DNA from: Terracidiphilus sp.
Lineage (GTDB): Bacteria; Acidobacteriota; Terriglobia; Terriglobales; Acidobacteriaceae
Assembly (NCBI GenBank): GCA_036267475.1
Contig: DATAVZ010000098.1
Location: forward strand, 4,974 to 68,973
Length of the DNA: 64,000 nt
Direction of reading: 5' to 3'
The translations under genes and the position numbers were made by a program. Shown one piece after another: positions 21,481 through 40,107 of this stretch (position 1 is the first letter of the stretch; each line of letters starts with the position of its first letter). The notes under the pieces are model-generated. The model ran no database searches. It was given only the letters and a program-made list of their open reading frames with translations, and had not been told where the DNA came from.

Positions 21481-21616
21481 CGACAGTATTTAGTTGCCGG
21501 ATCAATCGCGGCTCGATCTTCTCAGGCTTTTGGAAAGGCTCGGCTCGGAACATGGGAATCAGCATAGGCAACATCTACTTCCTGTCGTGAATCTGACAGG
21601 GAGAGGAAGCTGTGTC

Positions 21617-22522: not shown

Positions 22523-22533
22523 GCCCCCTCCTC

Positions 22534-26757: not shown

Positions 26758-27167
26758 CTCGTCGCCTCTGCACTCTCGGATGCAAATGACAGAGCACGCG
26801 GCCACATTGCTCAAAGGGCGCGCTGTATTTGGACTTCGATCTGATCATTGACGCGGGACTGGATTGAGTTGGTAGTCGGCTACTTTGCATCTGTTGAGAG
26901 GGCTGCGATTGGAGCCGTTATCAACGCGGGCCAAAACCCCAAGCCTTCCACTCAACCTTGATTACGCCGTGAAGGCGTTCAACCTCTGATACCAGCTTGG
27001 GAATTCGCGCGCGAATGCGGTTCTTGAAGGGTGGGTGCCTGCAGTCGAGCAGATGGACCGGACGGGGCGGCAGGCGAAGCTGGGAAAGAATCAAAAGGCT
27101 GCCGATGAAGTCTTCCCAAGTTTTCCTAACCTGGTGGAAGGAGGTTCTTCTAAGCTTTTGAATTGAT

Positions 27168-27212
27168 TGGTGGACGCGGTAGGAATCGAACCTACAACCT
27201 GTCGGTTAAGAG
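27168..27212. other. att core duplication (3' half of tRNA-Lys)
   Basis: TGGTGGACGCGGTAGGAATCGAACCTACAACCTGTCGGTTAAGAG, identical to 38522-38566. Confidence 0.95.
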
Positions 27213-27375
27213 AACAAAATCTAACGTAATATCAACGACTTACGCGCAACGGCTGGCAGCCTAAAGTATTGAAAAGTAACGGTGAGTAATTCTTACTGTG
27301 GGGTCATTGTGGGATGAAATCTGCTCCCATCCATTACCCACGTTTGCACCGAACGATCACCGAACGGTCGTTCTC

Positions 27376-27645
27376 TCAGGCAGCGTGTTCGATGTCCAAC
27401 TGGTCATCAATGGCTTTCCAGTTTGCCGCTGCCCGAAGCATGGCGTCGAATGCTTTCTCTTTCGTGATGATTCCGAGTGCCAGCAGGTGTACAGCCGTGG
27501 TTACCTTATTCAACGGCAGGCAATAAACGTCAAAGTCATCAAGCGTGAGGCCGCTCCGCTTGAAGAATCGGTTGTGCTTCGATATGTGTTCTTCGATCTC
27601 GTAATCCATCACGTGGTCGGTCGTTTTCACGATCATCGTTTTCAT
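27376..27645 (-). CDS. Hypothetical protein (89 aa), element accessory region
   Basis: AGGAG RBS and protein-like composition; no family recognised. Confidence 0.65.
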   Translation of the reverse strand: MKTMIVKTTDHVMDYEIEEHISKHNRFFKRSGLTLDDFDVYCLPLNKVTTAVHLLALGIITKEKAFDAMLRAAANWKAIDDQLDIEHAA

Positions 27646-27864
27646 AGTGGTCTCCTTGACTCCCGATCATGCCGGGGCCGGGTTGTGGGCAGAGTGCTGC
27701 CGTGGATGGTGTCAGAGGGTGCCCGTCTTCTGGATTACCCTCATGCCTCTAGGAGTGAGCGGTGTTGATGTGCTGAAGGTAGCCCGACAGAGAGCAGAAA
27801 GCAACAACTCTTTGGTGCTGTTTTGGCACCGTCTTTAGTGCAGCATTTTGGTCGATTCGTGACC

Positions 27865-27893
27865 TTGACAGAATCAAATATCTATATTATTAT
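27865..27893 (+). promoter_or_regulatory. Sigma70-type promoter
   Basis: TTGACA-17 bp-TATTAT, upstream of the 27988 ORF. Confidence 0.6.
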
Positions 27894-27987
27894 GTATAAC
27901 ATACAGTCTCCATAATCTGCATGTGACGTTTAAGATTTATGCAACTTTCTGCCCTCACAATCTGCTTATCGCGGATACACTGATTGC

Positions 27988-28290
27988 ATGAAATATTTCC
28001 TCAATCTATTCACTGCCAAGCGAGCCGATGGAACTCCGCAATACCATTCCTCAATCAACCGCAAACCCATTGTGCCTGGTTCTAGGACCGGAACAAAAAC
28101 ATTCGAGAGCGAAGCCGTGTTCAAGGAAAAGTTGAGCCAGGTGCGTGATGAGATAAACATCGAAGACGTTATGGAGAGACTAGGGCATGGTGAAAAAGCC
28201 CAGAGAGATAACATTGATCTCACAGACGCGGAAGCAGCGTCCTTTGGGTGGGAGTTTCCTAATCCAAAGTCAGAGAGCGATAAAGAATAG
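27988..28290 (+). CDS. Hypothetical protein (100 aa), element accessory region
   Basis: Open frame downstream of a strong predicted promoter; no family recognised. Confidence 0.55.
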   Translation: MKYFLNLFTAKRADGTPQYHSSINRKPIVPGSRTGTKTFESEAVFKEKLSQVRDEINIEDVMERLGHGEKAQRDNIDLTDAEAASFGWEFPNPKSESDKE

Positions 28291-28522
28291 AAGGTAAACA
28301 TGAGCAGCAGCCACTCTAAGGACGCCACCAGAGTTTGAAGACACCGCAGGCCGATATATCCCACATTGACAAGACGGGCCGGGCTTTCGCCCGACCCTTT
28401 GCCAGTTCTGGGGAAGGTTCTGGTGTGCAGATAGATGAGATGTTAACGGGCGGGAGGGACTGCGGATTCAAATGCGGGGAACTGGCAATTGGAACGAGCA
28501 TACACACTGTTGGTTCCGAGAG

Positions 28523-28726
28523 CTACGTGACCAAAGAGTTAGTGATGTGAATCGAACGTGACTCGTTACCTCTGAATTCTTTGCGGAGATTATCGACCGT
28601 CTCTTTTTGCAAGAGCAGAAGAGAATCCTCCGCGTCCTGTACTTTCTTCCGAACAATGGCGTTCGTTTCCACACCGATAGATCGTTCGATGTCCAATAGC
28701 TGTTCCAATATTAAATTGGGACTCAT
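28523..28726 (-). CDS. Small helical hypothetical protein (67 aa)
   Basis: GAGAGGG RBS; amphipathic LLDIERSIGVE...VRKKVQDAEDSLLLLQKE. Confidence 0.55.
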   Translation of the reverse strand: MSPNLILEQLLDIERSIGVETNAIVRKKVQDAEDSLLLLQKETVDNLRKEFRGNESRSIHITNSLVT

Positions 28727-28908
28727 CTGCACCCTCTCAGGCGGAAAGTTTCTCCGGGTAATGAGAAAGTGGATGTAGCCGCGATTCCAAAGGTTTCCCG
28801 ATTAGGTGATAGATACGGGAGCATCCGATTACTAAAGTGATGATTTTCTAAATGATCCGTCTGGTGCCATTGGGATAATTCTAAGGTGAGCCAGCCAGAA
28901 AGGAAAAC

Positions 28909-29394
28909 ATGAGCAAAATAACAAACATCTTCAGAGCATCGGAGGTAGACACATTCACAGTGCCTGCTGCCGTCTTCAATCGGCTGCTCACCGATCCCAA
29001 GGTGAAAATGAGCACTACTATTCTTTATGCCTATATCTTGAGCAAGGCTGATTCTCCCATGGTGCGCATTTACACAGGCGATGCATTGAACGATACCGGC
29101 CTATCGCGTCCTGTGTTCATTGAAGCCAGAGAAACCCTAGTTGCGGCCAAACTCATCAAGGCAAAAGAAACCACGAAGCAAGGTGTGTGGGAGTATGAGA
29201 TTCGTTCGGAGCATGGTGGCAAGCTGGCGACATTTGAAGACTTCATTGTCTTCCGCGATTTGGCAGCCGAGCAGATTGAGGCTTACTATGCGAGTCGCCT
29301 GGGTGTGAAGAAAGCGCCCGGCCAGAAGTCAGACAACAACCTGCTCTTCTACTGCCCATTTCATTCAGAGAAAGGCAGCGACCCAAAGCACTAG
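28909..29394 (+). CDS. Putative replication initiator, N-terminal part: winged-helix domain plus first half of a primase-type zinc ribbon (CPFH); truncated
   Basis: FTVP..F..LL...TILYAYILS...TGLSRPVFIEARETLVAAKLI initiator-like wHTH; stops 9 residues after CPFH; AGGAAA RBS. Confidence 0.6.
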   Translation: MSKITNIFRASEVDTFTVPAAVFNRLLTDPKVKMSTTILYAYILSKADSPMVRIYTGDALNDTGLSRPVFIEARETLVAAKLIKAKETTKQGVWEYEIRSEHGGKLATFEDFIVFRDLAAEQIEAYYASRLGVKKAPGQKSDNNLLFYCPFHSEKGSDPKH

Positions 29395-29560
29395 CTGCGG
29401 TAGCTGTAGCGGCTGTTATCGCGCCCGCCATCAGGTTAAACGACCGTTCTATATTTTTGCTGGAGTTCAAAGCTACAGCCGATGCCTTTTCCATGCCGCT
29501 CTGAAAGCTGGCAGTTTCCGCCGAAAGAGAAATCTGAATGTTTCCAATTTTTATAGCCAA
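29390..29560 (-). pseudogene. N-terminal stub of a tail tape measure protein
   Basis: MAIKIGNIQISLSAETASFQSGMEKASAVA...MAGAITAATATAASALG; TTG start with AGGAG RBS; the rest of the formal ORF (to 29243) is antisense to the rep gene. Confidence 0.65.
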
Positions 29561-29569
29561 TGTGGTCTC

Positions 29570-29947
29570 CTATACTTTCGGTACAAGATCGGGACGGCTG
29601 GCAACTCTGCGTGCCATCTCTTCTTTAACCCATGCAGCGGTCAACGGATCAACGCGGTCATAATGGGCAGCAATCTCCTCCGGCGTCATGAACGTACCAA
29701 GCCGGGCAATGCGCTCTACTTCACAGTAGGGAATGCGGCGAGCACCAAGGATATTGATAGATTGGAGTTTTCCAGATTTCAGAAGGTTAAAAATGGTACG
29801 CTCCGAAACTTTAAGGATGCGGGCAATCTCACGGATTGTGTAAACCGGGGAAACATCATCCTTAAATTCAGGAAGGTCTGAAAGCTGTGCGAAGACTGCT
29901 TCTAAGGCCGCCTCGGTATGCGCAGGGCGAATAGGGTGTTTAGACAT
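29570..29947 (-). CDS. Excisionase/AlpA-like helix-turn-helix regulator
   Basis: VYTIREIARILKVSERTIFNLLKSGKLQSINILGARRIPYCEVER; GGAG RBS. Confidence 0.8.
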   Translation of the reverse strand: MSKHPIRPAHTEAALEAVFAQLSDLPEFKDDVSPVYTIREIARILKVSERTIFNLLKSGKLQSINILGARRIPYCEVERIARLGTFMTPEEIAAHYDRVDPLTAAWVKEEMARRVASRPDLVPKV

Positions 29948-30594
29948 GGGTTCTCCTTCCGCTCGCGGTCTGTACCGGGCATGTCTGGTGTTGGTTAAAT
30001 TGTGGGATAAGAATCTTGCGGCTACCGCTACATACTCATAGATCAATTTTTTCGGACAAAAGGGACACTACCTGAAACTTTCTTCATTTTTGTTCGATCG
30101 GCTGCGGTTTCGTGCAGTCCTCTTCATACTCATAGATCAATTTTTTCGGGTAAAAGTCCCGGCTCGCCCAAACTTTTCTCAAAATAATTTCCGCTGGATA
30201 GGTCTGCACACTTTGCAGTGAAATTCTAAAGGAGTTAAGCGAAATGACCGAACCGCGTAGACGCATCGCTCGAAAAGTGTAGGCTACCCCATCACTTCTT
30301 TCTGCCGCAAGCGCGTTGCCCGGTTGCTGCCTCTTGCCGCTAGATTCTGAGTAGTGGGTCAGACCCTCAATCGCGCACTTCACCGAGGAATTTTGCTAGA
30401 GCCTCGATGGTGGGTGGGCAGTTCCCCGCTGGCGGGGAACTGGTCAATCTCGAATCCCGGCGCAATACGGATAACATCAGATCGCTGACGTTCGCCAGTC
30501 TTGATGGGCATCTCTTCCGGCCTGATCTTGCCAGCAGCCAGGGCATCCAAAGCAGACGTGATGGTCTCTCGCAGAACGCTGGCGTCAGTCTGCC

Positions 30595-31161
30595 CTATGC
30601 TGCACCTTGCCGGATGGCTTGTGCCTCACTGCCCCATGCAGCCTCGGTTGTCTCATGCTGCTCGAACGGTCGCACGTCAATCTGACGACGCATTCCATTC
30701 TGGCGTCTAAATTCGCGCTCTGCATCTTCGCGGCGTTCTTTGGTAATCTGCCGCGTGGCCTTGGCAACCGCATCACGCACTAGAATGTTCTTCCGTTCTG
30801 CTTCTATCGCCTTGGCATCTTCACTCTTGAACAGCACATCTATGACTTTCTGCAACCTGTTGGCCGCAGGTTTGTCTGCGAAGTGAAGCTGAGACCATAC
30901 AGCATCCAGGCTGGCACGCACAGCGCGGGTGCAAGCATGGCATCTCTTGCCGGTCGCTACGGTCTCATGGTCGCAGCGGTCGAAGTAAACCCGGCTGGCT
31001 ACAGCACCAGGTGCTTTTCTTGCTGTGAGTGATTCTTGTATTGCCGCCGTGGTGCAGGCAGGGCAAGCATAAACGGGATTCTGCCCTAGTGTGTGAAAGG
31101 TGAATGGCTGTGCAAGGCTGCTGGACTCTCCCAGGTGCTGGCAAAGATCAGGTGTAGACAT
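30595..31161 (-). CDS. Cys-rich hypothetical protein (188 aa)
   Basis: AGGAG RBS; CQH, CPAC, CDH and CHAC motifs, then a charged helical C-terminus. Confidence 0.65.
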   Translation of the reverse strand: MSTPDLCQHLGESSSLAQPFTFHTLGQNPVYACPACTTAAIQESLTARKAPGAVASRVYFDRCDHETVATGKRCHACTRAVRASLDAVWSQLHFADKPAANRLQKVIDVLFKSEDAKAIEAERKNILVRDAVAKATRQITKERREDAEREFRRQNGMRRQIDVRPFEQHETTEAAWGSEAQAIRQGAA

Positions 31162-31445
31162 GGTTCTCCTGTGTACCGGATGTGACCGGCTAGTAAATGT
31201 TTTGAGATTTGGCCGCATGTGGACCAGGATTGTAACCAGGGTTGTACCGCTCGCTACGCTCGCTCAAAAGATGGCGAACCACAAGACTTTTACCCCTTGA
31301 TGTTTCAGACTAGGTATAGCCTTGGCTAGATCAGCGCAGGTACCATCCTGAGACCGCTCGCTCAAGAAGCCTGTATACAGGCACTGTAATTAAAGAGCAT
31401 ATATCTTCCGAACAACTCATCTGTTTTCTTATAGATAAGCCTCGA

Positions 31446-31530
31446 ATCTGTAAAGATTCTTTACACCTAGGCTCTATTATCTGTAAAGATTCTTTACACT
31501 TGGCATGGGTCGATGTAAATAAAATTGACA
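31446..31530. promoter_or_regulatory. Phased palindromic operator/iteron array
   Basis: ATCTGTAAAGATTCTTTACAC at 31446 and 31479 (33 bp period; 17 bp palindrome); degenerate third copy TGTAAATAAAATTGACA at 31514. Confidence 0.7.
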
Positions 31531-31534
31531 CCCG

Positions 31535-31834
31535 TTAGATGGTCACTTTCGAAGCCTCGGTTAGCCGTCTCATCTCCGCGATAGCCGGGTGTTCTGCTTT
31601 ATCAGGAGTCAACCTGCCAACCATGAAGGATCGCACCGCTTGGGATGCCTGCGATTTGGTGAGATGCTGGCCGCGCGTCTCTGACATGGCTTGCTCGAAT
31701 TCGACGAGTCCACCACGGCGACCGCAGCGAGCTTTGCCGCAGATGTACCTACCGTGGTGCTCTCCACGGTCTACAGAAACAGTGAGAGTGGGTTTCGGGT
31801 TGCCGCCGCTGTTATGCCGTGATCTGGTCTCCAT
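31535..31834 (-). pseudogene. Second half of a primase-type zinc-ribbon protein, complementary to the 28909 ORF
   Basis: PKPTLTVSVDRGEHHGRYICGKARCGRRGGLVEF matches the post-CPFH half of CHC2 zinc fingers. Confidence 0.55.
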
Positions 31835-32260
31835 CGTCGTTTAGACACGATTTCAAGATGCGTGCTGCCCTTTTCGTAATCTCCAAGGTTTTTAGTCCAA
31901 CTTTTGGATAGTAGCCTACGGGCAGCACCATGCTGGTTTTCTCATTATTTACCAGCCTTGCGGGTGTAGGCGTCAACTCCTACACCCGATAAGTTTAAGT
32001 TGCACGTGCGGGCGGACTGAATGGTCCCTAAGTTTTAGTCTATCTTCGGGTGCTCATAACTCAATAGCCCGCACGTGCCAAAGATTCAATCAACATTGCA
32101 GCCGATGACTGGTGACCGTGCCTTGTGGGAGTGCCGCGTGTCCTGGTCATCGGTGCAGTTGGGTACACATCTGGAAAAGCCTGCGTCCGTGATATCGATC
32201 ACGGATATAGTGCAACGTGTGCTGATCCATAACCAAACCACGTAAAGGGAACAACTCATC

Positions 32261-32419
32261 GTGAAGAATCTTACAGACGTTATTAATCTTGAAAATATAT
32301 TTTCCGTCCGCGTAGGAGACGATCCAGAGAATGATGTGGACAACAGCCTGGATGCCATGACGGAACAATCTTCGTCCGACACAGACGATCTAATCGCAAT
32401 TACATTCGAGGTTGTCTAA
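32261..32419 (+). CDS. 52 aa acidic small protein directly upstream of the fibre gene
   Basis: GTG start after AAAGGG; 13 Asp/Glu against 2 Lys/Arg; stop lies 2 nt before the next ATG. Confidence 0.4.
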   Translation: MKNLTDVINLENIFSVRVGDDPENDVDNSLDAMTEQSSSDTDDLIAITFEVV

Positions 32420-32421
32420 TA

Positions 32422-33498
32422 ATGGCCGCACCAACAACAAGTATCATGCTCAACACTTCCACGCCTGCTCCTCCTAGTGGACAGCAGAATGTAGCCTTTC
32501 AATCCGATGGTGACACGCCACAGCAGAGAGTTTCAGCCTATATGCCGGTTGCTACTTCATCCCTGTCCGGCGCAATGTACCCAGATGGTGCGACGTGCGA
32601 AGTAGATGGCGCAGGCAAGCTGACTGTGCTCGGCACGACGGGCAGCACGAATGCAAGCGAAATTCAGGGTATAGCTGTTTCTGCCACAACCCCCACCACA
32701 GGTCAAGTACTCGAATACAACGGTACAGAATACGTGCCAACAACACCAAGCATCACCAGCAGCATTACCGCACACTTCGGCACAGCCGACCCTAACGGAG
32801 CAAACACACCTGCAAGCGTGCAATCTGCGTCTGCTGGTGGTGGTTCGGTCGCTCTGTCTTCATCGGTCACCGAAGGTAATTTACTGGTCGTGGTTTTTTC
32901 TATTGACACCTATGTTCCGGGCCGAACATGCACCGATACACTCGGCACCAGCTACACGCAATTGGAAAACCTTTCAACACCGGAAGAGCTAGACGTGTGG
33001 GCTGGCATTGCGCCTGCATCTGGTACCAACACAGTGACCATTTCGGGCAGCATGAATTATCGGCCTGCAATGACAGCCTGCGAGTTTTCTAACGCTACTA
33101 TCTCCGTGGATCAGTCCATCACGTCTTCAGACCATTCATCGATGGCTGGTCCTATCTCTGTGACAACCGCCGCGCCGAATGATCTGGTACTCGCTTGCGT
33201 AGGTAGCAGCAGTGGTGGTTCCGCTACCGTTTCGTCTGGATTCACACAGCTATCTGACCAAGAGGCAGCCTACAACCAAAACGTCACAGCCGTTGCCTAC
33301 TCAGTCGAAACCAGCCCTGCATCGGTATCTGCTTCCTTTTCGCTCCCGAGTACAGGAGCGTGGTGTATGGCGTTGATTGCGCTCAAGGCAATCTCTGACC
33401 CGGTAAGTGGCACCGAAGGTGATCTGTACTTTCAAACCAGTTCCAGCCCGTACACAAGCTATGTGTTGCATAGTGGCGCGTGGCAACCATTCAGTTAA
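32422..33498 (+). CDS. Virion fibre/spike-like structural protein
   Basis: Ser/Thr/Gly/Ala-rich; PTTGQVLEYNGTEYVP and GTADP...GTEGDLYF...Y..HSGAW motifs typical of phage fibre proteins. Confidence 0.6.
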   Translation: MAAPTTSIMLNTSTPAPPSGQQNVAFQSDGDTPQQRVSAYMPVATSSLSGAMYPDGATCEVDGAGKLTVLGTTGSTNASEIQGIAVSATTPTTGQVLEYNGTEYVPTTPSITSSITAHFGTADPNGANTPASVQSASAGGGSVALSSSVTEGNLLVVVFSIDTYVPGRTCTDTLGTSYTQLENLSTPEELDVWAGIAPASGTNTVTISGSMNYRPAMTACEFSNATISVDQSITSSDHSSMAGPISVTTAAPNDLVLACVGSSSGGSATVSSGFTQLSDQEAAYNQNVTAVAYSVETSPASVSASFSLPSTGAWCMALIALKAISDPVSGTEGDLYFQTSSSPYTSYVLHSGAWQPFS

Positions 33499-33553
33499 GC
33501 CATCTGTGACTGTGATCATCTTACTGTAAGGTTATGGTCCACTTTGGGCACAG

Positions 33554-33647
33554 CGGGGATATGGGGGTCGAATAGTTTCAACCTTTTGGGCTCTACGGAA
33601 CGCGCGTGAATCTTCGGCGTGCCCCGTCAGTGCGAAAACCGAAAAAT
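33554..33647. other. Candidate cos packaging region
   Basis: GGGGATATGGGGGTCGAATAGTTT...GGAACGCGCGTGAAT...GCGAAAACCGAAAAAT just upstream of terS; similar in layout to the ends of HK97-like cos phages. Confidence 0.45.
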
Positions 33648-33800
33648 CAGAATCGATTTCGATCCGCAGCACTCGCGGTAACCATATTGTTTTCAGTTGT
33701 TTATGGGAATGTCGAGGAATGCCCTGATAGTAGTACCATTCTCCATCGGAATCAAAAGACGCATGAATGCTGCACAGTGCGCATAAAGGAACCTTGAACC

Positions 33801-34286
33801 ATGAGCAAACGAAAATCGACTGCAAATCATATTGCGGCGGGCACCTTCCGTGCCGATAGACATGCAAAGAGTAGACTCACATTCCCGCCTGCGACCGGCA
33901 CCGCACCACGTTGGCTATCCAAGGTAGCCAAAGCAGAATGGAGGCGTGTAGCGCCCTTTCTGCTTGAGCAGGGCGCACTCCTGGAAGTGGACACGGCAAT
34001 TCTTGCTGCCTACTGCACCGCGTTCGCTGGATACCTGGAAGCAAAGTCTCTGGTGGATGAGCAAGGGCAGATTATCACCGTCACGTCACAGACGCGCACG
34101 GGCAGCACATCAAAGCCGATCCGAAATCCTGCCGTTACTCTCATGCTGGATTATCAGCGTTCAATGCTGGCAGCCGCGAGCAAGATGGGTTTCAGTCCCT
34201 ATGACCGCGAACGCATCGAGGGGCAGGAAATCGAGCCTGAGACTGCTCTCGCAGAAGACGAATTCCCTGAAGCCTTATACGCATAA
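33801..34286 (+). CDS. Phage terminase small subunit, P27 family
   Basis: APRWLSKVAKAEWRRV, DTAILAAYC, RNPAV, ASKMGFSPYDRERI. Confidence 0.88.
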   Translation: MSKRKSTANHIAAGTFRADRHAKSRLTFPPATGTAPRWLSKVAKAEWRRVAPFLLEQGALLEVDTAILAAYCTAFAGYLEAKSLVDEQGQIITVTSQTRTGSTSKPIRNPAVTLMLDYQRSMLAAASKMGFSPYDRERIEGQEIEPETALAEDEFPEALYA

Positions 34287-34321
34287 GTTCTCACTCCCGC
34301 CTAAAAAGGAAAATCCCACAC

Positions 34322-35176
34322 ATGACAAAGCACAAAACTCCCACGCGGGAGCTGCGCACAACCACGTCCAAAGCTCAACCTATGACCGTCCGCACCCTCG
34401 CTGATGGCAGCAAGCAAATTGGTGGCTACGCGATTGTATTCAACTCACGCAGCGTTGACCTTGGCGGATTCACGGAGATTGTTTCTCCTGGTGCAGTCAA
34501 GCGAACGCTCAAAGATGGTCACCCGATCCTCGCATTGCGTGACCATAAGCAAGAGCTGCTGCTCGGCAACACAGCGGCGGGAACGCTCGAACTCAAAGCA
34601 GATTCAAAGGGTCTCGCATTCACCATCACCCTTCCGAGAACCGCAATCGGTGAGGATACGGCAGAGAACGTCAGACTCCGTAACTTGTTCGGCGTGTCGT
34701 TCGGATTCAGCGTCAACTATAGCGAAGATGCAGAGGGTGATTCATGGGCAGCCGATGCTGACGGCAACGTAGTTCGCACCTTGCTTGACATTGATCTGTT
34801 TGAAGTGAGCCCTACCAGCTTTGCAGCCTATCCCGAAGCCAGTGTTTCTACGCGGAGCGCATCACCGGACATCCGAGCAAAACTGAAAGCGAAGCGGGCA
34901 GACCCTGGTTATGTACAGGGACTCGACATGCTCGGCATTCTCAACACCCCAGACGATACCGATCTTGACAACACGGACGGCGACAGCGAAGACACAGATG
35001 GCGAAGAACAGTGCTCCTGTATGCGGAGTGCTGCCTCTTGCGTAGCGTGTCGCACTGGAGACCATGCCAATTGCAATGCTGAAACCCGCTGCGATTTTGC
35101 AGACCGTGATGCTGACCAGCAACGCAGCGATTCACTCCGCATGAAGACACTCATCGCACGGCGAATGGCCGTGTAA
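34322..35176 (+). CDS. HK97-family prohead protease with acidic and Cys-rich C-terminal extension
   Basis: GYAIVFNSRS.DLGGFTEIVSPGA, catalytic His region LRDH, GVSFGF (Ser), LFEVSPTSFAAY. Confidence 0.93.
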   Translation: MTKHKTPTRELRTTTSKAQPMTVRTLADGSKQIGGYAIVFNSRSVDLGGFTEIVSPGAVKRTLKDGHPILALRDHKQELLLGNTAAGTLELKADSKGLAFTITLPRTAIGEDTAENVRLRNLFGVSFGFSVNYSEDAEGDSWAADADGNVVRTLLDIDLFEVSPTSFAAYPEASVSTRSASPDIRAKLKAKRADPGYVQGLDMLGILNTPDDTDLDNTDGDSEDTDGEEQCSCMRSAASCVACRTGDHANCNAETRCDFADRDADQQRSDSLRMKTLIARRMAV

Positions 35177-35224
35177 CGACATTGAAGTAAGACGTAGATA
35201 ACCCGCTCGACTGACTTCACAACA

Positions 35225-35258
35225 AAGGCTCGCCTTAATCGGCGGGCCTTTTTGTTTT
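35225..35258 (+). terminator. Intrinsic terminator between protease and capsid genes
   Basis: AAGGCTCGCC-TTAATC-GGCGGGCCTT followed by TTTGTTTT. Confidence 0.7.
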
Positions 35259-35348
35259 GCAAAGCAAATTCCCTCGGCCGTGAATTTAACCGGCCAATCC
35301 CACAACCTTTCAACCTACTCGGCAAACCCGAGAGAAAGATTCACATAC

Positions 35349-36578
35349 ATGGATTTGCAGCAACTTAAATTTAATCGCAATAAGCTCCTTACCGATATGA
35401 GCACCATTGCAGGCAAGCCCTGGTCTACGGAATCCCGTGCTCAGTTCGACCAGATGAATGTGGATGTGACCAATCTGGAGTCAGACATTCAGCGGGCAGA
35501 GACACTGGCGTCTTTGAACGCGAAAGATCAGCAGTTCACGCGGTCTCCTCGCCCTCAGGTGAACGGCAGCACTACGGATGAAACCAGCGTGGAGTATCGC
35601 AAGAAGAATTTCAGCGAAGCATTTCGTCAGTATGCTCTGCATGGTCGTGCGGGTCTGAATCAGGAGCAGCGCGATCTGTTGACCACATCTGCGGCGACGG
35701 GGGGCGCTCTGATTCCCCAGTTGTTCAATGATTCGCTGACCATGGCTCGCAAGTTCTACGGACCTATTGCGGACAAGGTGAAACAGAAGATCACAGACAA
35801 GAATGGTGCTCCGGTGAAGATTTCACTCGGAAACGATACCACCCATGGACTCACGTTGCTTGGTACGGAAGGTACTAGCTCTCCTGCTGAGACCGATCCG
35901 TCGTTTCAGGCTAATATCCTGGGCGTGGACACCGTAACTGGTGGTCTGGTGAAGGTGTCTTTTGAGGAACTTGAAGACTCTGCGTTCGATTTGGATGCTT
36001 TCCTGCGTGAATCGTTCGGTATGCGCTATGCGCGCGGTCTCGAAAAGGCCATCACTGTAGGCACGGATTCAGCGGGCACTCCTTTGCCGAACCAGACTGC
36101 GGGAGGAATTTCTGCGGGTGCAACCGTGGTTGTCACGACTGTTGCTATCGCGGAGGGCCTTGGGTGGGATGACCTGACGGCTGCATATACCGGCTTGGAC
36201 CCGGCTTATGTGCAGAATGCGTCATGGGTCATGAACTCGACCACTCGTGGTTACTTGGTTGGATTGAAGGATGGGTTTGGCCGCCCATATTTTCAGCCGG
36301 ACCCCTCAGATAATGCGCCTTTCAGTCGCATCCTTGGATTCCCCATCGTGCTTAATCAGTCGATGCCTGCAATGGGTGCTAGTGCGATTCCGATTATCTT
36401 TGGAAGCCTCGCGGACGCCTATATGTTGCGCACAGACGGGCAGCCGTCGATTCTGCGCCTAAATGAGCGATTCGCAGACACGCTGGAAGTAGGTTTCTAT
36501 ATGTGGACCCGCATCGGAGGAATTTCACTGAATGCGGGCGTGACCCCGCTGGTTTCGATTCAGCAAGCGAGCAGCTAG
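35349..36578 (+). CDS. HK97-fold major capsid protein with N-terminal delta/scaffold domain
   Basis: Coiled-coil N-terminus, TGGALIP, WVMNSTT...LKDGFGRPYFQP, ILGFPIV, IIFGSL. Confidence 0.93.
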   Translation: MDLQQLKFNRNKLLTDMSTIAGKPWSTESRAQFDQMNVDVTNLESDIQRAETLASLNAKDQQFTRSPRPQVNGSTTDETSVEYRKKNFSEAFRQYALHGRAGLNQEQRDLLTTSAATGGALIPQLFNDSLTMARKFYGPIADKVKQKITDKNGAPVKISLGNDTTHGLTLLGTEGTSSPAETDPSFQANILGVDTVTGGLVKVSFEELEDSAFDLDAFLRESFGMRYARGLEKAITVGTDSAGTPLPNQTAGGISAGATVVVTTVAIAEGLGWDDLTAAYTGLDPAYVQNASWVMNSTTRGYLVGLKDGFGRPYFQPDPSDNAPFSRILGFPIVLNQSMPAMGASAIPIIFGSLADAYMLRTDGQPSILRLNERFADTLEVGFYMWTRIGGISLNAGVTPLVSIQQASS

Positions 36579-36592
36579 TAGTTAACAAACGG

Positions 36593-36628
36593 ATGGGGCA
36601 GGCTCTCGGGTCTGCCCCATTTGCTTTT
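36593..36628 (+). terminator. Terminator-like hairpin after the capsid gene
   Basis: ATGGGGCAGGC-TCTCGG-GTCTGCCCCAT followed by TTGCTTTT. Confidence 0.6.
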
Positions 36629-36637
36629 GGAGAAGAA

Positions 36638-36844
36638 ATGAAAGTAACAATCATCAAGAGTTTTGTTGTTCCACCTGCTGCACCGTTCACACCCGGTGAA
36701 ATTCTCACCGTGAACGATGAACTCGCTGCGGAGTGGATTCGACTTGGCAATGCAATCGAAGGTCTCATCCCTGCTTACAAGAATCCTGCTACTAATCTGA
36801 TCGTTAAGAAACCTGTCAAGGGCAGGTGGGGTAAACGACGGTGA
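36638..36844 (+). CDS. 68 aa small head-module protein of the type that often follows HK97 capsid genes
   Basis: GGAG RBS; MKVTIIKSF...FTPGEILTVNDELAAEWIRLGNA, basic C-terminus. Confidence 0.65.
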   Translation: MKVTIIKSFVVPPAAPFTPGEILTVNDELAAEWIRLGNAIEGLIPAYKNPATNLIVKKPVKGRWGKRR

Positions 36845-36982
36845 CACTACTCACGCACAGTCGGCACAGCAACGCAGACAGCGACTGACAACTTAACAGT
36901 TTCCTCTCGGAGTCTAGGCTTCGGGAGGGTGCATTTTTCGTATCTGTAATCTTCCACCAAAACACTATTTATAGGAGAACCA

Positions 36983-37249
36983 TTGAATATCGAAACAACC
37001 ATAGCGACTGAGCGTGGCGCAATTGAATCAATCATGGCTGCGAGCAGAGACCTTTTCGAGCCGTTGCTGACCGCAGAGGAAGCGGCGGAATATCTTCTCA
37101 TCCACGTCAAGACACTTCAGAAACTTGCCCGTGAAAAGCGGGTTCCCTGTGTTCGCATGGGGAAATATTGGAGGTTTCGCCTGTCTTCTCTTGACTCTTG
37201 GGTGACGGCACAGCACAATCAAATGCAGCCAACCGTTGTGTGTGAGTGA
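36983..37249 (+). CDS. Excisionase (helix-turn-helix, HTH_17-like)
   Basis: LLTAEEAAEYLLIHVKTLQKLAREKRVPCVRMGKYWRFRLSSLDSWV; AGGAG RBS; directly upstream of the integrase. Confidence 0.85.
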   Translation: MNIETTIATERGAIESIMAASRDLFEPLLTAEEAAEYLLIHVKTLQKLAREKRVPCVRMGKYWRFRLSSLDSWVTAQHNQMQPTVVCE

Positions 37250-37261
37250 CAGGAGAGCATC

Positions 37262-38458
37262 TTGAATCACACACGCAGCAAATATCAAAGAGGAAGTCTC
37301 CGCAGAGTGTCTCGCAAATCCGGTGCCGACGTTTGGGAATATCGATTCCGCAACCACGCGGAACCTGGTAGTCCTATGCGCCAGATTACGCTCTCCACAC
37401 TTGAATACCCAACCGAGTCAAAGGCTTTGCTTCGTCTTCAAGAGGAATTGCTTCGCATCAATGGAGCATCAGCCTACAGACAGCAGAACAAGCCGACATT
37501 GGGCCTAGTCATAGATCGATTCAACAGGGAAGAGCGTATTGAGGACATTGTGAAACAGCAGCCGGGCGAGATCACCATCACCGATGGTCTCTCCTATAGC
37601 ACCGCACGCGGATACCGCAGCTATCTCTCAAAGCACGTAAAACCGAGATGGGGCAGCACTCCGCTGGTGGATATTAAAGCACTAGAAGTCACTGAGTGGT
37701 TGAAGTCTCTACCCCTGTCACCGAAAACGCGCGGGCAAGTGCGGGCGCTCCTGCATCTGCTATTCGAGCGGGCCATGCTGTGGTGTCTAATTGAACTACA
37801 GCGCAATCCCATCGAGCTAGTCAAGGTGAAGGGTACCAGCAAGCGTCAGAAGAGACCGCAGATACTTGCCCCTGCGAAGTTCCTGGAACTGGTAGGCAAA
37901 CTGCGTGACCCGTACAGGACAATGGCTATTGTGGCGATGTGTACCGGTCTGCGAGTATCAGAGATTCTGGCCTTGCGGTGGGAACACATCGACTTCAAGG
38001 CAGGGTCGATGATGGTCACGCAGGGTGTGGTCAATGGGAGAATCGGGAGGGCGAAGACGGAAGCATCGCATGATGATGTTCCGCTTGACTCCGCGTTTGC
38101 CGATGTTCTGCTCCGTTGGAAGGGTGACCACAAAGAGGGTCTTGTATTTCCCTCACCCGTCACAGGGGGTTGCTACTACAGCGGAATCATCCAAAGGCAG
38201 ATTCTCAAACCGAAGGGTGAAGATGTTGGCATAGCAGGTTTGGGCTGGCATACTTTCAGACACACGTATCGTTCGCTCCTGGACGAAACGGGCGCTCCGA
38301 TTGGTGTGCAGCAAAAGCTGATGCGTCATGCCAACGTGTCTACCACAATGAACGTGTACGGCAACGCAAGCCTGAAGGCGAAGCAGCAAGCTAACTCTAA
38401 GGTTGTGCAGATGGTGATGAAGGAAAAGCCGCAGACAAAGGAATCATCTGCGGCCTAA
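37262..38458 (+). CDS. Tyrosine recombinase (phage integrase)
   Basis: Intact catalytic set TGLRVSE (R), HTFRH (HxxR), MRHA (H), MNVY (Y); N-terminal arm-binding strand VWEYRFR. Confidence 0.95.
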   Translation: MNHTRSKYQRGSLRRVSRKSGADVWEYRFRNHAEPGSPMRQITLSTLEYPTESKALLRLQEELLRINGASAYRQQNKPTLGLVIDRFNREERIEDIVKQQPGEITITDGLSYSTARGYRSYLSKHVKPRWGSTPLVDIKALEVTEWLKSLPLSPKTRGQVRALLHLLFERAMLWCLIELQRNPIELVKVKGTSKRQKRPQILAPAKFLELVGKLRDPYRTMAIVAMCTGLRVSEILALRWEHIDFKAGSMMVTQGVVNGRIGRAKTEASHDDVPLDSAFADVLLRWKGDHKEGLVFPSPVTGGCYYSGIIQRQILKPKGEDVGIAGLGWHTFRHTYRSLLDETGAPIGVQQKLMRHANVSTTMNVYGNASLKAKQQANSKVVQMVMKEKPQTKESSAA

Positions 38459-38521
38459 TTCTTAACGTGGGGTTCCGTGGGGTTGGGCTTCTCTACCGCA
38501 TTCGCTAAGTTCTTTAGAATC

Positions 38522-38597
38522 TGGTGGACGCGGTAGGAATCGAACCTACAACCTGTCGGTTAAGAGCCGAATGCTCTGCCAGTTGAGCTACGCGTCC
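38522..38597 (-). tRNA. tRNA-Lys(CTT), integration target
   Basis: Reverse complement GGACGCGTAGCTCAACTGGCAGAGCATTCGGCTCTTAACCGACAGGTTGTAGGTTCGATTCCTACCGCGTCCACCA. Confidence 0.95.
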
Positions 38598-38741
38598 ATT
38601 GGTTGGGTAACCGCTTGGAGGGATCGTTCTTGCGGCCGCGCGGACAGCGAAAATAATGTCCGTACCTCCAAAAATATACCACAGGCACGGCCAAATCGAA
38701 AGGACTGGACGGGACCCGGCTGGCGCTGCGCAGCATTCGAT

Positions 38742-40016
38742 TTAGAACGGAAGCAGGTTGCCGCCCGGATCGAACTGCATGGCGCGCGCCTGCCCGGTTA
38801 TGCGCACTCCGGGCAGCTTTTCGAGCATTTCCGCGCAGCATTCTGAAACCAGCATACGCTCCAGGCTGAGCGTGTCGGCGATGCGCACAATGCGCGTCTT
38901 TTCAGGATGCGTAGTGGCAAGCGTCGTCAGCGCCGCGTCAATCGACTCGCGATCGCTGTCGAAGTAAATGGGTATCTTGGCCGGGTGCATTCCGATGGCG
39001 GTAATCGCATTGATGTAGATGGAGCGCAGGTCAAGAGCTTTTACCGCGCGGCTGGTGGTAAAGTCGGCCAGCCCGATGCCGATTCCGTTGCCCTTGGTTG
39101 CAGCCGACAAATCGCGAACAAAAATGCGGGAGATGTGCGGCGTGACTGGACCGGCATGTTGCAGAGCAGTGGAGTAGCCCAGGATATCGCGGCCAATAAT
39201 GTTGGTGTCCATTCCCGTTCCGCTGATCTCTTTGCCAATCCGGTCAATAATCAGCAGGTCAATCTCATCCAGCGGCAGGCGCGGCATCAGCGCCCGGGCT
39301 CTCTCCAGCAGCACAGGCTCCTGGCGCACGATCGCATCGGGCGGCAGAACCTCGATTGCGGCGGTCTGATGATGTTGATCTTCAAGCAGCGCAATGCCGC
39401 ACAGCACGGGCACTTTATCGAGAATGATCCTGGCAAACTCGCGGATGGCAATTTCATGGCCGAAGTGAGCTGCGGCGCGGTGAGCGTTGGCCGCGCCGGC
39501 GTGCTTGCCAAAGCCGATGGTCAGCATCTTTTGAATGCCGCTGCCAAGGCTTCCGCGAAAGTCAGTATGCGGCTTGACGCGATTGATCGCCACGATGCCA
39601 TCGGCCTTGAGCGCGGGAACACTCCACAGCACATCCCACCCGTCCAGAGCCGTGCCGATCTTCTCCACATCCATGCCGGCCTCAATGGGAACGCCCAGGC
39701 TCTCTGCCGTAATTCCATATCCGGCCAGCACTTTTATCTGTCCGTCGGGCGTGGCGCCGCCATGGCTGCCCATGGCCGGAATCACAAAGGGCCGCGCGCC
39801 TGCGTCGATCAACACGCGCACTGTCGCTTCCACAATCTCTTTCAGATTGGCAATGCCGCGGCTGCCCACTCCCACGGCAATCCGCATTCCGGGCGATATT
39901 TTATTGCGCGGGCCGAGGCTCTCAAACTGCTCGGCAACAAGGCTGCGAAAGTCCAGCCGCACAGAAGCAGGATAAGTCTGCGTGATCTCGATCAGGTCGG
40001 GCAATTGGCTATTCAT
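38742..40016 (-). CDS. LarA/DUF2088 lactate-racemase-domain protein
   Basis: GVGSRGIANL, PAMGSHGGATPDGQ, INRVKPHTDF, GKEISGTGMDTNIIGR. Confidence 0.8.
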   Translation of the reverse strand: MNSQLPDLIEITQTYPASVRLDFRSLVAEQFESLGPRNKISPGMRIAVGVGSRGIANLKEIVEATVRVLIDAGARPFVIPAMGSHGGATPDGQIKVLAGYGITAESLGVPIEAGMDVEKIGTALDGWDVLWSVPALKADGIVAINRVKPHTDFRGSLGSGIQKMLTIGFGKHAGAANAHRAAAHFGHEIAIREFARIILDKVPVLCGIALLEDQHHQTAAIEVLPPDAIVRQEPVLLERARALMPRLPLDEIDLLIIDRIGKEISGTGMDTNIIGRDILGYSTALQHAGPVTPHISRIFVRDLSAATKGNGIGIGLADFTTSRAVKALDLRSIYINAITAIGMHPAKIPIYFDSDRESIDAALTTLATTHPEKTRIVRIADTLSLERMLVSECCAEMLEKLPGVRITGQARAMQFDPGGNLLPF

Positions 40017-40107
40017 TGGAAATTCGGCTCACGAAATTCGGTTCAGCCCACGCAGCCATGACTCTATATAGGTATCGTCGAATGTGCCGTCTGCAATTTG
40101 AAAGGAA

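Follow-up and report, generated by a model that had tools for sequence, protein, structure and literature searches.

How does an integrated island spread if it encodes capsid genes of its own and lacks both the large terminase subunit (TerL) and a portal? Such an island, 11.35 kb long, lies in the window (the whole 64-kb stretch of DNA analysed here) from a Terracidiphilus-like soil bacterium. An earlier note, made from the sequence alone, described it as a satellite that has its own major capsid protein (MCP), protease, small terminase subunit (TerS), cos site and fibre gene, and borrows TerL, portal and tail from a helper phage. Comparative data support this layout, whereas the copy in the window proved to be rearranged and the fibre assignment was overstated. 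We estimate at roughly 70% the probability that the element belongs to a family of 9–13 kb tRNA-integrating phage satellites of Acidobacteriaceae.

Boundaries and integration module

The island is bounded by perfect 45-bp direct repeats, attL (27168–27212) and attR (38522–38566), spaced 11354 apart, as the earlier note had observed. The right copy comprises the 3′-terminal 45 nt of a tRNA-Lys(ctt) gene (38522–38597, minus strand; ARAGORN; Rfam tRNA, 70.5 bits), and the left one duplicates this tRNA end. Logan contigs break within attL (k = 31). The genes for an excisionase (Xis, HTH_17; 36983–37249, plus strand; Pfam 2e-13) and a tyrosine integrase (37262–38458, plus strand; Phage_integrase 3e-17 and a SAM-like N-terminal domain) are both intact, and the R..K..HxxR..H..Y residues are present in the integrase translation, confirming the catalytic set reported earlier. 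Their counterparts in the related elements L034 and L061 are 71–87% (Xis) and 77–79% (integrase) identical. Since the G+C content is lower within the element (0.49–0.54) than in the flanks (0.56–0.62) and the att repeats are perfect, the element is of foreign origin.

The soil metagenome runs gave no sign of an excised circle, an empty site or over-replication; the depth of the element and of the chromosome was 106 vs. 92–142 in one run and 40 vs. 39–53 in another, and the element is present on each of the three contigs that have the identical LigD. No terminal repeats were found on any family contig, and no helper was identified for the window genome.

Head genes and missing functions

The head genes follow each other on the plus strand: TerS of the P27 family (33801–34286; Terminase_4 2e-21; phrog_83 2e-31; equivalog TIGR01558, sm_term_P27), an HK97-family prohead serine protease (S78) of 284 aa (34322–35176; Peptidase_S78 2e-39; TIGR01543, proheadase_HK97), which aligns to family members over its full length, and an HK97-family MCP of 409 aa with an N-terminal delta domain (35349–36578; Phage_capsid 2e-36; TIGR01554, major_cap_HK97, 4e-69), for which more than 260 homologues exist at 52–68% identity. 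The family matches of these three genes bear out the intact run proposed from the sequence. The "small head gene" appended to it is a 68-aa ORF (36638–36844, plus strand), also called in L001 and 39% identical to orf74 of phage L002, a small ORF that sits between the MCP and connector genes; it has no NCBIfam match.

Only 35 nt separate the TerS stop (34286) from the protease start (34322), leaving no room for TerL or portal, as claimed. In tblastn searches of the 64-kb window, TerL, portal, connector, tail-tube and other tail proteins of the complete phage L002 had no match apart from a stub of the tape measure protein (TMP), and HNH of phage L080 had none anywhere. The reported absence of HNH, connector and tail tube is therefore confirmed for the window, the TMP stub of 67 aa being present as a tail remnant. 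No replication gene is recognisable in the element.

The "fibre" gene encodes a 358-aa protein whose C-terminal beta-sandwich resembles those of siphophage minor tail proteins (32422–33498, plus strand). It has no Pfam, PHROG, NCBIfam or PDB match; its AF2 model (pLDDT 80–94 across residues 130–330) yields BFVD matches with E from 5e-9 to 1e-4, several of them labelled minor tail protein, and a 31% identical homologue is located upstream of the protease in the small element L005. The likeness to minor tail proteins, through this beta-sandwich, is at the fold level only.

Rearranged left arm

The element is not fully intact, as a segment of about 2.45 kb in its left arm (29361–31830) is inverted, with the left junction at 29360/29361 and the right one between 31790 and 31830. 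The inversion splits a gene of family F6. Its N-terminal part (28909–29394, plus strand), containing a winged helix and the first half of a CPFH-type zinc finger, aligns to residues 1–151 of the 238–280-aa homologues in L005, L018, L058, L067 and L070, and stops 10 codons past CPFH. The C-terminal part, with the second half of the zinc finger and the tail, is a separate 99-aa ORF on the opposite strand (31535–31834, minus), where residues 165–219 of the L005 protein and 153–217 of the L018 protein match window positions 31789–31619 (tblastn). The TMP stub adjoins the left junction, and its homology stops where that of the N-terminal F6 part stops: in a 105-aa ORF (29243–29560, minus strand), similarity is limited to residues 1–67, which are 67% identical to residues 1–67 of the 1061-aa TMP of L002 and also match the TMP of the small element L023. 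Contigs of 100% identity from other runs cross the junctions (X4, 29308–29975 and 31528–31848; X5, 31660–31946), and the X3 variant departs from the window sequence exactly at 29361. Because F6 is split and TMP is reduced to a 67-residue stub, the window copy may be impaired despite its intact integration and head modules.

The family-conserved F6, a winged-helix/zinc-finger gene, is a candidate replication or regulation factor. Other left-arm genes are an HTH_17 (excisionase/AlpA-like) regulator of family F4 (29570–30046, minus strand; Pfam HTH_17 4e-8; TIGR01764; called as 125 aa from 29947), found in eight out of 24 elements; a 207-aa Cys-rich ORF of family F12 (30595–31218, minus strand), with homologues in L005, L054 and L061 and no Pfam match; an accessory 89-aa ORF (27376–27645, minus strand), called in two independent assemblies and having no Pfam, NCBIfam or PADLOC match; and a 100-aa ORF (27988–28290, plus strand) with no family matches. 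Upstream of the HTH gene, two 38-nt direct repeats (30025–30156; 89% identity, 94 nt apart) are a candidate operator or iterons, and two identical 21-nt repeats (31446–31499), each containing the palindrome TGTAAAGATTCTTTACA, may serve as an operator.

Family of related small elements

MCP homologues led us to some 30 distinct loci of this kind in Acidobacteriaceae, in which protease and MCP are preceded by 3.5–10 kb devoid of TerL and portal; true phages (TerS–TerL–portal–protease–MCP–connector) are a minority among the MCP-homologue loci. Ten relatives, 8,976–12,652 bp in size, are bounded by 17–52-nt direct repeats copying the end of a tRNA gene, and all ten have a tyrosine integrase, the protease and MCP. 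The delimited elements occupy six kinds of tRNA genes, those of the relatives being Leu, Cys, Arg, Ser and Gln. Elements of about 9 kb (9.0–9.6) mostly lack TerS, and those of 11.4–12.9 kb (the window, L065, L005) have it. L023 carries a full-length TMP. TerS adjoins the protease in at least eight lineages, with a spacing of −22 to +37 nt in the window, L025, L030/61, L032/65, L056 and L066; this junction is inherited rather than the product of repeated accidents, since it is kept among proteins only 40–60% identical.

Purifying selection acts on the head genes: between small elements, dN/dS is 0.065–0.20 for MCP (dS 0.19–1.0), 0.10–0.25 for the protease, and 0.125 for TerS. MCP genes are split in L015, L017–L019, L021, L034 and L072; some of these splits may be Nanopore errors, and some probably reflect real decay. 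The earlier note had named lack of independent homologues and relaxed selection on the head genes among the outcomes that would speak against a satellite; instead, many independent 9–13 kb homologues with the same layout exist, and selection is not relaxed (0.065–0.25). Judged by sequence, this is a widespread, previously undescribed integrative family with its own MCP, protease and cos-type site, and without a packaging motor, portal or tail.

Full-size siphophages with 56–67% identical MCPs, among them L002, L029 and L031 (TerS–TerL–portal–protease–MCP), fall into the same MCP clade (bootstrap 99). In this star-like tree, the phage MCPs nest among those of the small elements, which outnumber the phages about 6 to 1. 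With full-size phages among the closest relatives, the tree gives no support for a deep satellite-only MCP lineage, and the siphophages of the clade are a candidate helper lineage.

Conserved cos-like site

A non-coding element of about 100 nt (GGGGATATGGGGGTCGAA ... CGGAACGCGCG ...; 33554–33650, plus strand; nhmmer E 2e-15) is carried by nearly all family members and is better conserved than the genes flanking it. With nhmmer E from 1e-20 to 1e-3, it recurs on the plus strand upstream of TerS or the protease in some 28 distinct small elements. It has no consensus RNA fold and no Rfam match. In phage contigs L080, L098, L016 (HNH confirmed), L087 and L090, its core GGGGATATGGGGGTCGAA lies directly downstream of HNH and, wherever the contig covers that side (L080, L098, L016), upstream of TerS, as also in L041. 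HK97-type phages canonically have cos at this position. The motif-bearing phages have MCPs only about 30% identical and TerS of another subtype than the window; the contigs of the phages closest in MCP and TerS, L002 and L029, end just upstream of HNH and so fall outside the motif comparison. The motif shared with HNH-cos phages at the expected position upholds the cos-like site of the earlier note and places it at 33554–33650.

The same element could be a late promoter, a site bound by an activator or the leader at the 5′ end of the head operon, mobilisation proceeding otherwise, e.g., by TerS-started headful packaging. This would account for its constant placement 20–500 nt before the first head gene, always on the same strand, for the late-operon continuation also contained in the phage HNH–TerS gap, and for the motif-bearing phages having TerS of another subtype than the window. 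We nevertheless consider it rather unlikely, as the element is retained in members without any TerS (L003, L009, L058, L067, L070), contigs L087 and L090 stop 71 and 27 nt past the motif, straight after HNH, and the combination of P27-type TerS and HNH is the hallmark of cos packaging (10.1101/2022.09.08.507074).

Proposed life cycle and alternative explanations

Having no packaging motor, portal or tail, the family most likely spreads by hijacking a helper phage. We infer that the island depends on a helper, assembles its shell on that phage's portal, has a small capsid and is packaged, as follows. The island would reside as a prophage-like insert (tyrosine integrase, Xis, att at the tRNA 3′ end) and excise when an HK97-like HNH-cos siphophage, the helper, grows in the host cell. 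Its late operon would then express the minor-tail-like protein, TerS, protease and MCP. HK97 gp5 and gp4 form proheads without a portal; here, the island MCP, with its delta-domain scaffold, and the S78 protease would give rise to a mature shell made of island-encoded protein and formed on the helper portal. Helper TerL and HNH would cut the island cos and pump the DNA, directed by the island P27-type TerS where present, while the ~9-kb members without TerS would use that of the helper, cf. P4 and SaPIbov5. Helper connectors and tail would complete the particle, and some members may modify the tail through an island-encoded full tape measure, minor tail proteins or a gp10-like protein.

We give little credence to the possibility that the window island and each of its relatives are immobile remnants of full-size HK97-like prophages, from which TerL, portal, connectors, tail and lysis genes were deleted. 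Full prophages of canonical gene order do occur among the closest MCP relatives, the TMP stub has diverged from L002 about as much as the MCP (67 and 63% identity, respectively), and the gene-splitting inversion, the split MCP genes of several relatives and the missing signs of excision all fit decay. Yet independent decay is unlikely to yield repeated sizes of 9.0–9.6 or 11.4–12.9 kb with intact att at six kinds of tRNA genes, a tight TerS–protease junction recurring in lineages 40–60% diverged, intact MCP and protease with dN/dS of 0.07–0.25, a 100-nt non-coding site conserved beyond its flanking genes, and the ~6 to 1 prevalence of small elements over phages. Even less probable is an anti-phage interference island, whose MCP, protease and TerS would be retained mainly as an abortive or decoy defence that derails head assembly and DNA packaging in related infecting phages, with virion transfer absent or incidental. 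It would suit head genes under purifying selection and MCPs about 60% identical to those of co-resident phage lineages, and known satellites do act thus via MCP homologues, e.g., Ccm of SaPIbov5 (PMC5052747); on the other hand, the integrase, Xis, intact att, varied tRNA targets and conserved cos-type site point to regular horizontal movement, PADLOC finds no known defence gene, and in known satellites interference is compatible with transfer.

Comparison with known systems

The niche between PICIs and capsid-forming PICIs (cf-PICIs) suggested in the earlier note is already occupied by the closest published analogue, the Extracellular Prophage-Inducing Particles (EPIPs) of Mycolicibacterium aichiense (bioRxiv, December 2025; PMC12822802). 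EPIPs encode TerS, MCP, scaffold and TMP without TerL or portal, and have been isolated as particles, with heads smaller than those of the helper (PMC12822802), whereas the present family is known from sequence alone. Both comprise elements of about 11 kb with TerS, MCP, an HTH regulator and integrase, and lack TerL, portal, tail tube and lysis genes; TMP is present in EPIPs (PMC12822802), full-length in L023 and a stub in the window. A serine integrase, scaffolding protein, head–tail adaptor and stopper, and an Actinomycetota host are found only in EPIPs (PMC12822802), while the S78 protease and delta-domain MCP distinguish our family, sequence relationship between the two being undetectable.

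The cf-PICIs (e.g., EcCIEDL933) are likewise 10–15 kb islands with capsids from their own HK97-type MCP and protease and their own TerS, and parasitise HNH-cos phages (10.1101/2022.09.08.507074; PMC10085698). They additionally encode portal, head–tail adaptor, connector, HNH and TerL, all five lacking in the window, so that the helper gives tails only; at least nine of their 11 core components are required (10.1101/2022.09.08.507074; PMC10085698). Unlike them, our family has no recognisable pri-rep and comes from another phylum. The cos-type SaPIs (SaPIbov5/SaPIbov2) combine the helper cos with an HK97-fold MCP homologue, Ccm, and use helper TerL, HNH, portal and tail, which results in small capsids (PMC5052747). 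Ccm, which is one diverged homologue, acts by remodelling the capsids of the helper, and SaPIs have no protease or TerS, reside in Firmicutes and carry SaPI-typical regulatory and replication modules (PMC5052747).

P4-like satellites are similarly tRNA-integrated and about 11.6 kb long, and the helper terminase, using a helper-type cos, packages them in a small capsid; they lack MCP and protease, relying on the external scaffold Sid acting on the P2 capsid protein, and have an alpha primase-helicase and delta/epsilon regulators. Finally, the portal-less "mini" HK97-fold elements (5–12 kb) known from metagenomes have an integrase and an HK97-fold shell protein and no portal or tail, but their MCPs are encapsulin-like, their replicases are of the RepA type, and terminase and packaging genes are absent (10.1101/2025.06.18.659913); the family described here is set apart by a canonical PF05065 MCP, S78 protease, P27 TerS and cos-type site.

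Organization of the island

The 11.35-kb island is bounded by perfect direct att repeats of 45 nt at 27168-27212 and 38522-38566 (11,354 bp from att to att), the right copy being the 3' end of tRNA-Lys(ctt), encoded on the minus strand at 38522-38597. Its G+C content is 0.49-0.54, versus 0.56-0.62 outside, and it is flanked by ordinary chromosome genes (Ku, LigD, pyruvate phosphate dikinase, RhaT), with the dikinase 87-90% identical to versions from Terracidiphilus MAGs, which places the host in Acidobacteriaceae. Ku (TIGR02772) and a full-length LigD, with the 3'-phosphoesterase, ligase and polymerase domains all present, form an NHEJ pair at 21494-25242, about 2 kb upstream of attL.

The genes of the right part were assigned from strong matches in Pfam, PHROG and NCBIfam (equivalog level): a P27-family TerS (33801-34286), an HK97-family S78 prohead protease (34322-35176), an HK97-family MCP (35349-36578), which contains a delta domain, an HTH_17 excisionase (Xis, 36983-37249) and a tyrosine integrase (Int, 37262-38458). 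Between MCP and Xis lies a 68-aa ORF (36638-36844). Only 35 nt separate TerS and the protease, and tblastn with proteins of the related complete siphophage L002 gave zero matches to TerL or portal in the 64-kb window. The same search yielded no match there for the connector, head-closure (HCP), tail-completion, tail-tube, chaperone and gp10-like proteins, nor did the HNH protein of another phage, L080. Among the element ORFs there is no Pfam match to Phage_portal or to a head-tail adaptor or connector, and no primase, helicase or Rep domain; the sole unassigned ORF above 300 aa encodes a minor-tail-like protein. Tail and lysis genes were likewise not found in the element by Pfam on ORFs and tblastn with L002 proteins. 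The island thus does not have the layout defining an intact HK97-like prophage (TerS-TerL-portal-protease-MCP-connectors-tail-lysis, ~35-65 kb). These results agree with the earlier note, which had reported the att repeats, Int and Xis, the terS-protease-MCP run devoid of terL and portal, and the lack of HNH, connector and tail-tube genes.

The note had also listed a fibre gene. The 358-aa protein at 32422-33498 has no family match and only 12 homologues; in the related contig L005, a homologue of 31% identity is encoded directly upstream of the protease. Residues 130-330 of its AlphaFold model are confident and form a beta-sandwich, which had no match below E 0.018 in PDB and many among phage proteins in BFVD (E 5e-9 to 1e-4), several of them annotated as minor tail proteins of actinobacteriophages. 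A tail-like fold is retained from that claim, with matches confined to BFVD, but not a fibre as such; a fair reading of the model is that the protein may be a tail accessory or receptor-binding-like protein.

A family of small elements in Acidobacteriaceae

More than 260 homologues of the MCP were found (52-68% identity), the named ones coming from Acidobacteriaceae or Terracidiphilus. We collected the surroundings of these genes in GTDB genomes, IMG/VR, JGI metagenomes and Logan, and mapped the window proteins and the L002 proteins onto every collected locus. A minority are true siphophages with the order HNH-TerS-TerL-portal-protease-MCP-connector-tail (L002, L029, L031, L011; more distantly L016, L037, L038, L040-44, L048-50); in L002, a tRNA-Pro(tgg) gene lies between portal and protease (4112-4189). 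About 30 distinct loci have protease-MCP, with TerL and portal absent from the upstream 3.5-10 kb, and most of them have a tyrosine integrase close by. TerS and protease directly adjoin each other (-22 to +37 nt) in the window and in L025/26/53, L030/61, L032/33/65, L056 and L066; since the proteins of these loci share only 40-60% identity, the junction without TerL and portal has been inherited rather than recreated.

Ten relatives, of 8,976-12,652 bp, are fully bounded by direct repeats duplicating a tRNA gene end, namely, tRNA-Leu (L003, 8,978 bp; L017, 9,542 bp; L058, 8,976 bp; L065, 12,652 bp; L072, 9,507 bp), tRNA-Ser (L027, 9,602 bp; L070, 9,201 bp), tRNA-Cys (L009, 8,976 bp), tRNA-Arg (L018, 9,336 bp), and tRNA-Gln (L067, 9,351 bp); L005 is a contig of like kind of 12.9 kb. 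Together with the window island (11,354 bp), the sizes span a narrow range and fall into two classes: TerS is present in the class of 11.4-12.9 kb and missing from most of the class of ~9.0-9.6 kb. Just past the tRNA-Ser gene that closes the complete 9.6-kb element of L027, there is a second, partial MCP (12206-13293, minus strand; 75% identity to the L002 MCP), so that islands may lie side by side or in tandem at a single tRNA locus.

Clustering of all proteins from 24 elements left integrase, protease and MCP as the core genes. The variable shell comprises TerS (10/24 elements), the HTH_17 regulator and family F5 (8/24 each), F6 and the sigma-70-region-2-like F7 (6/24 each), as well as Xis and F12, the 207-aa ORF of the window. 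Its tail-related genes encode a gp10-like neck protein (L021, L022, L034, L064), an Ig-like He_PIG protein, beta-rich proteins of ~335 aa and, in L023, a full-length tape measure protein (TMP) 53% identical to that of L002. L023, which has TerS-protease-MCP and is devoid of TerL and portal, encodes this 1047-aa tape measure together with a beta-rich protein of 337 aa and an Ig-domain protein of the He_PIG type at 867-4010 and 4198-5961. Pfam searches with ten accessory family proteins matched only HTH_36 (F15), He_PIG (F29) and, weakly, Sigma70_r2 (F7). The gene order of the window (HTH ... TerS-protease-MCP ... F12-Xis-Int) is shared by L061, with Xis 87% and Int 79% identical.

Several members show peculiarities of their own. 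In L034, an Illumina-derived IMG/VR contig with Int 77% identical to the window's, the MCP aligns in three pieces (9746-11502) separated by gaps of ~260 bp, which could be insertions, intervening sequences or decay. L006 and L020 lie on short contigs of Victivallales / Verrucomicrobiota MAGs from binchicken co-assemblies; the labels are likely due to mis-binning, and a wider host range may be the other explanation. The proteases are mostly 250-290 aa long in the small elements versus ~375 aa, with a C-terminal extension, in the related full phages, a difference that could bear on scaffolding and capsid size.

A candidate cos-type element upstream of the head genes

Comparison of the DNA upstream of TerS revealed a conserved stretch of ~100 nt, in the window at 33554-33650 (GGGGATATGGGGGTCGAATAGTTTCAACC...CGGAACGCGCG...). 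A nhmmer profile finds this intergenic element in about 28 distinct small elements (E 1e-20 to 1e-3). It is always on the plus strand, and the first head gene, be it TerS, a small ORF or the protease, follows 20-500 nt downstream; members without TerS keep the element. A structured RNA was considered and rejected, as RNAalifold predicts 0 pairs from 12 copies and Rfam, whose only hit is a tRNA, has no match in the element.

In IMG/VR, we looked for phages carrying the core motif and a second, phage-specific block. The composite pattern GGGGATAKGGGG-N28-40-GGAACGCGCG gave 0 matches, and the 16-17-mer gave 22, most of them due to chance and four informative (L022, L080, L087, L090). In phage L080, the HNH gene (1833-2186) is followed by the motif at 2209, TerS at 2439, and then TerL, portal and protease; 17/17 nt of the motif and 26/30 of the extended core are identical to the window. 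Phage L098 has HNH at 5972-6322, the motif near 6345 and TerS at 6577, then TerL, portal, protease, MCP and connector. The motif also lies between HNH and TerS in L016, upstream of TerS in L041, and directly after HNH in L087 and L090, the contigs ending 71 nt and 27 nt later, respectively. All these comparisons concern phages other than the L002/L029 type, whose contigs stop 130-280 nt upstream of HNH; the motif-bearing phages have a different TerS subtype, and their MCP shares only ~30% identity with that of the island.

HK97-type HNH-cos phages carry cos in the gap between HNH and TerS, a location that has also been discussed for the helpers of cf-PICIs. Since the motif occupies this gap in phages, we read the element as a candidate helper-type cos site, which accords with the cos-like site proposed in the earlier note; the cohesive ends of L080/L098-type phages would then lie within the GGGGATATGGGGGTCGAA region. 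A stretch that keeps its strand and its place ahead of the head genes may instead be a late promoter rather than cos; with the HNH-TerS location in phages on the side of cos, we regard the promoter as unlikely.

Selection and phylogeny of the head genes

The earlier note had left a decayed prophage as the alternative and relaxed selection as its mark. Nei-Gojobori dN/dS between pairs of small elements is 0.065 (L024/L054, dS 0.19), 0.13 (L027/L057, dS 0.25) and 0.19 (L003/L010, dS 0.68) for MCP, with 0.1-0.2 for remoter pairs, 0.10-0.25 for the protease, and 0.125 (L023/L051) for TerS. These values (0.065-0.25 overall) show no relaxation, and hence the head genes have been kept by selection inside the small-element lineage. 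Ten bounded relatives of 8.98-12.65 kb, which keep the core genes and the junction and show dN/dS of 0.07-0.25, constitute a recurrent architecture distinct from prophage debris.

In the neighbour-joining MCP tree, all small elements and the phages L002, L029/60, L031 and L011 form one clade (bootstrap 99). The clade is star-like inside, and the phages are grouped there in a small nested subclade (bootstrap 77), not at the base. The MCP therefore does not represent a deep satellite-only lineage of the kind reported for cf-PICIs (10.1101/2022.09.08.507074). The small elements may have been in exchange with L002-like phages or have arisen from them repeatedly. On grounds of capsid compatibility, L002-like phages would be natural helper candidates.

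Rearrangement of the window copy

With the L002 tape measure as a tblastn query, residues 1-67 of 1061 match the window at 29360-29560 on the minus strand (67% identity), and no remnant of the rest was found in the window. With this stub begins a 105-aa ORF, which immediately follows the HTH gene. Family F6, in five relatives 238-280 aa long, combines a winged helix with a CPFH...C..C zinc finger, resembling a wHTH plus CHC2-like Zn finger with no Toprim and no helicase. In the window, F6 residues 1-151 align to 28918-29367 on the plus strand, where the ORF ends 10 codons past CPFH, and the counterpart of residues ~153-219 is on the minus strand, at 31789-31619 within a 99-aa ORF (31535-31834). 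As the halves are on opposite strands, the segment from 29361 to ~31.8 kb, containing the TMP stub, the HTH gene, F12 and the C-terminal part of F6, has been inverted. Undoing the inversion restores F6 and places all genes on the plus strand in the order F6-F12-HTH-TMP...tail-like-TerS-protease-MCP-Xis-Int, which is the family order. F6, split by the inversion, is the sole candidate for a primase-replicase (pri-rep) gene in the island.

No inverted repeat was found at the inversion junctions. Contigs of other soil metagenome runs span them with 100% identity (run X4, 29308-29975 and 31528-31848; run X5, 31660-31946), and an assembly artefact was rejected as the cause, because identical contigs from separate samples cross both junctions. 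In run X3, a variant departs from the window sequence precisely at 29361, compatible with the TMP running on. The head gene run described earlier as intact-looking and the integration genes are in place, but the copy is rearranged.

X3 also contains a mosaic relative sharing 27184-27690 and ~31.0-36.5 kb (tail-like gene to MCP) at at least 95% identity, with a different left arm and int/xis module, which shows modular exchange; a second variant of ~92% identity is there as well. The inverted segment bears 38-nt direct repeats upstream of the HTH gene (30025-30156) and, at 31446-31499, two identical 21-nt units, each with the palindrome TGTAAAGATTCTTTACA; both are candidates for operators or an origin.

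Read depth and excision

The depth of the island is close to that of its flanks (106 vs 92-142 in X1, 40 vs 39-53 in X2). The right flank (38572-40165) is ~1.3-fold above the island (27184-38550) in both runs (142 vs 106 and 53 vs 40), and the left is about equal; the excess could reflect a sub-population without the island or with another one. Word depth jumps 3-20-fold over both tRNA genes in all runs (38526-39026 and 40029-40500, the latter around tRNA-Ser at 40108-40200). Many different loose ends, none of them fitting the opposite end of the element, begin at the att core in contigs of the soil runs: the tRNA ends are common to many genomes, or to many different islands, in the same soils.

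The contigs of four runs contain no attP or attB joint over 25500-40500. The 11,368-bp Logan contig L001 is not a circle: both its ends lie 30 nt within the 45-bp repeat, where a k=31 graph break would put them. No empty site was seen in sister strains, every contig with an identical LigD carrying the island, and no terminal repeats occur on any family contig. The metagenome contigs thus display single-copy depth and no excised form, an absence that is only weakly negative because assembled contigs drop rare forms. In a search for a helper phage in X1 and X2, L098 matched only scraps. That the window copy is still mobilisable is a real possibility, which we rate slightly below even.

Proposed mode of life

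Taken as a whole, we consider this a family of helper-dependent, capsid-encoding satellites, with a probability of about 0.7. The helper dependence proposed in the earlier note is largely borne out at the family level, with the reservation that the MCP lineage is shared with phages. In the mechanism we envisage, the island would build and mature a shell entirely from its own MCP and protease, starting assembly on a portal taken from a helper. TerL and HNH of this helper would fill the shell via the helper-type cos site, and in some members the element's own tape measure, minor tail or neck protein would re-tool the stolen tail (length or host range). Whether these steps amount to a new satellite class, the first in Acidobacteriota, seems to us evenly balanced.

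Known satellites either remodel the helper capsid protein (P4, SaPIs, PLEs) or carry a complete head-and-packaging kit with portal and TerL (cf-PICIs, MulchRoom/MiniFlayer). The present family, which is widespread, brings the shell protein, its maturation protease, a cos site and sometimes TerS, and never the portal or motor, which implies that shells encoded by a satellite can start on a portal foreign to them. If true, it would be a functional intermediate between capsid-remodelling and capsid-forming PICIs, making portal-MCP specificity and capsid size control directly testable. It would also open a view onto the satellite biology of Acidobacteriota, an abundant soil phylum with, to our knowledge, almost no cultured phages. 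A cos-type element beside protease-MCP without portal could mark satellites and candidate helpers in soil metagenomes, where such loci are currently labelled "incomplete prophage" or IMG/VR viral contigs, and their recognition would correct soil virus counts.

Comparison with known satellites

We found no paper on satellites in Acidobacteriota, in line with the earlier note, and the SatelliteFinder survey omits the phylum. By general features the island is a satellite: it lacks genes for an autonomous virion and carries TerS together with a cos-type element that it has in common with HNH-cos phages. The PICI model counts int, regulator, pri-rep, capsid morphogenesis and terS as its five core components. 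An integrase, an AlpA/HTH regulator, TerS, the size of ~10-15 kb and att sites are common to PICIs and the island, whereas the primase-replicase module of PICIs is not in the island; as classical PICIs have pri-rep and solely capsid-remodelling genes, the island fits only in part. The cf-PICI model of SatelliteFinder has 11 core components, of which at least nine are needed, and requires portal, adaptor, connector, HNH and TerL (10.1101/2022.09.08.507074; PMC10085698). Own MCP, protease, TerS, integrase and an AlpA-type regulator are shared with the island, but all five required components are absent from it, and so it is not a cf-PICI.

SaPIbov5, with cos and one MCP homologue (PMC5052747), offers a mechanistic parallel; MulchRoom and MiniFlayer carry TerL and portal (PMC10690885), and portal-less encapsulin-like mini-elements have neither terminase nor cos (10.1101/2025.06.18.659913). 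The place between PICIs and cf-PICIs assigned to the island in the earlier note has a published analogue in EPIPs, 11-kb elements with TerS, MCP, scaffold, adaptor, stopper and TMP, without TerL and portal, and with small heads and altered tails by EM (PMC12822802). Given the full-length tape measure and tail-like genes of L023, tail parts travel on some members of our family, as they do in EPIPs. EPIPs use a serine integrase, a scaffolding protein and a full TMP, the island a tyrosine integrase, a protease with the MCP delta domain, and a 67-aa TMP stub. They are the closest functional analogue of the island, unrelated in sequence, recombinase type and host phylum, and the two are analogous in function, not homologous.
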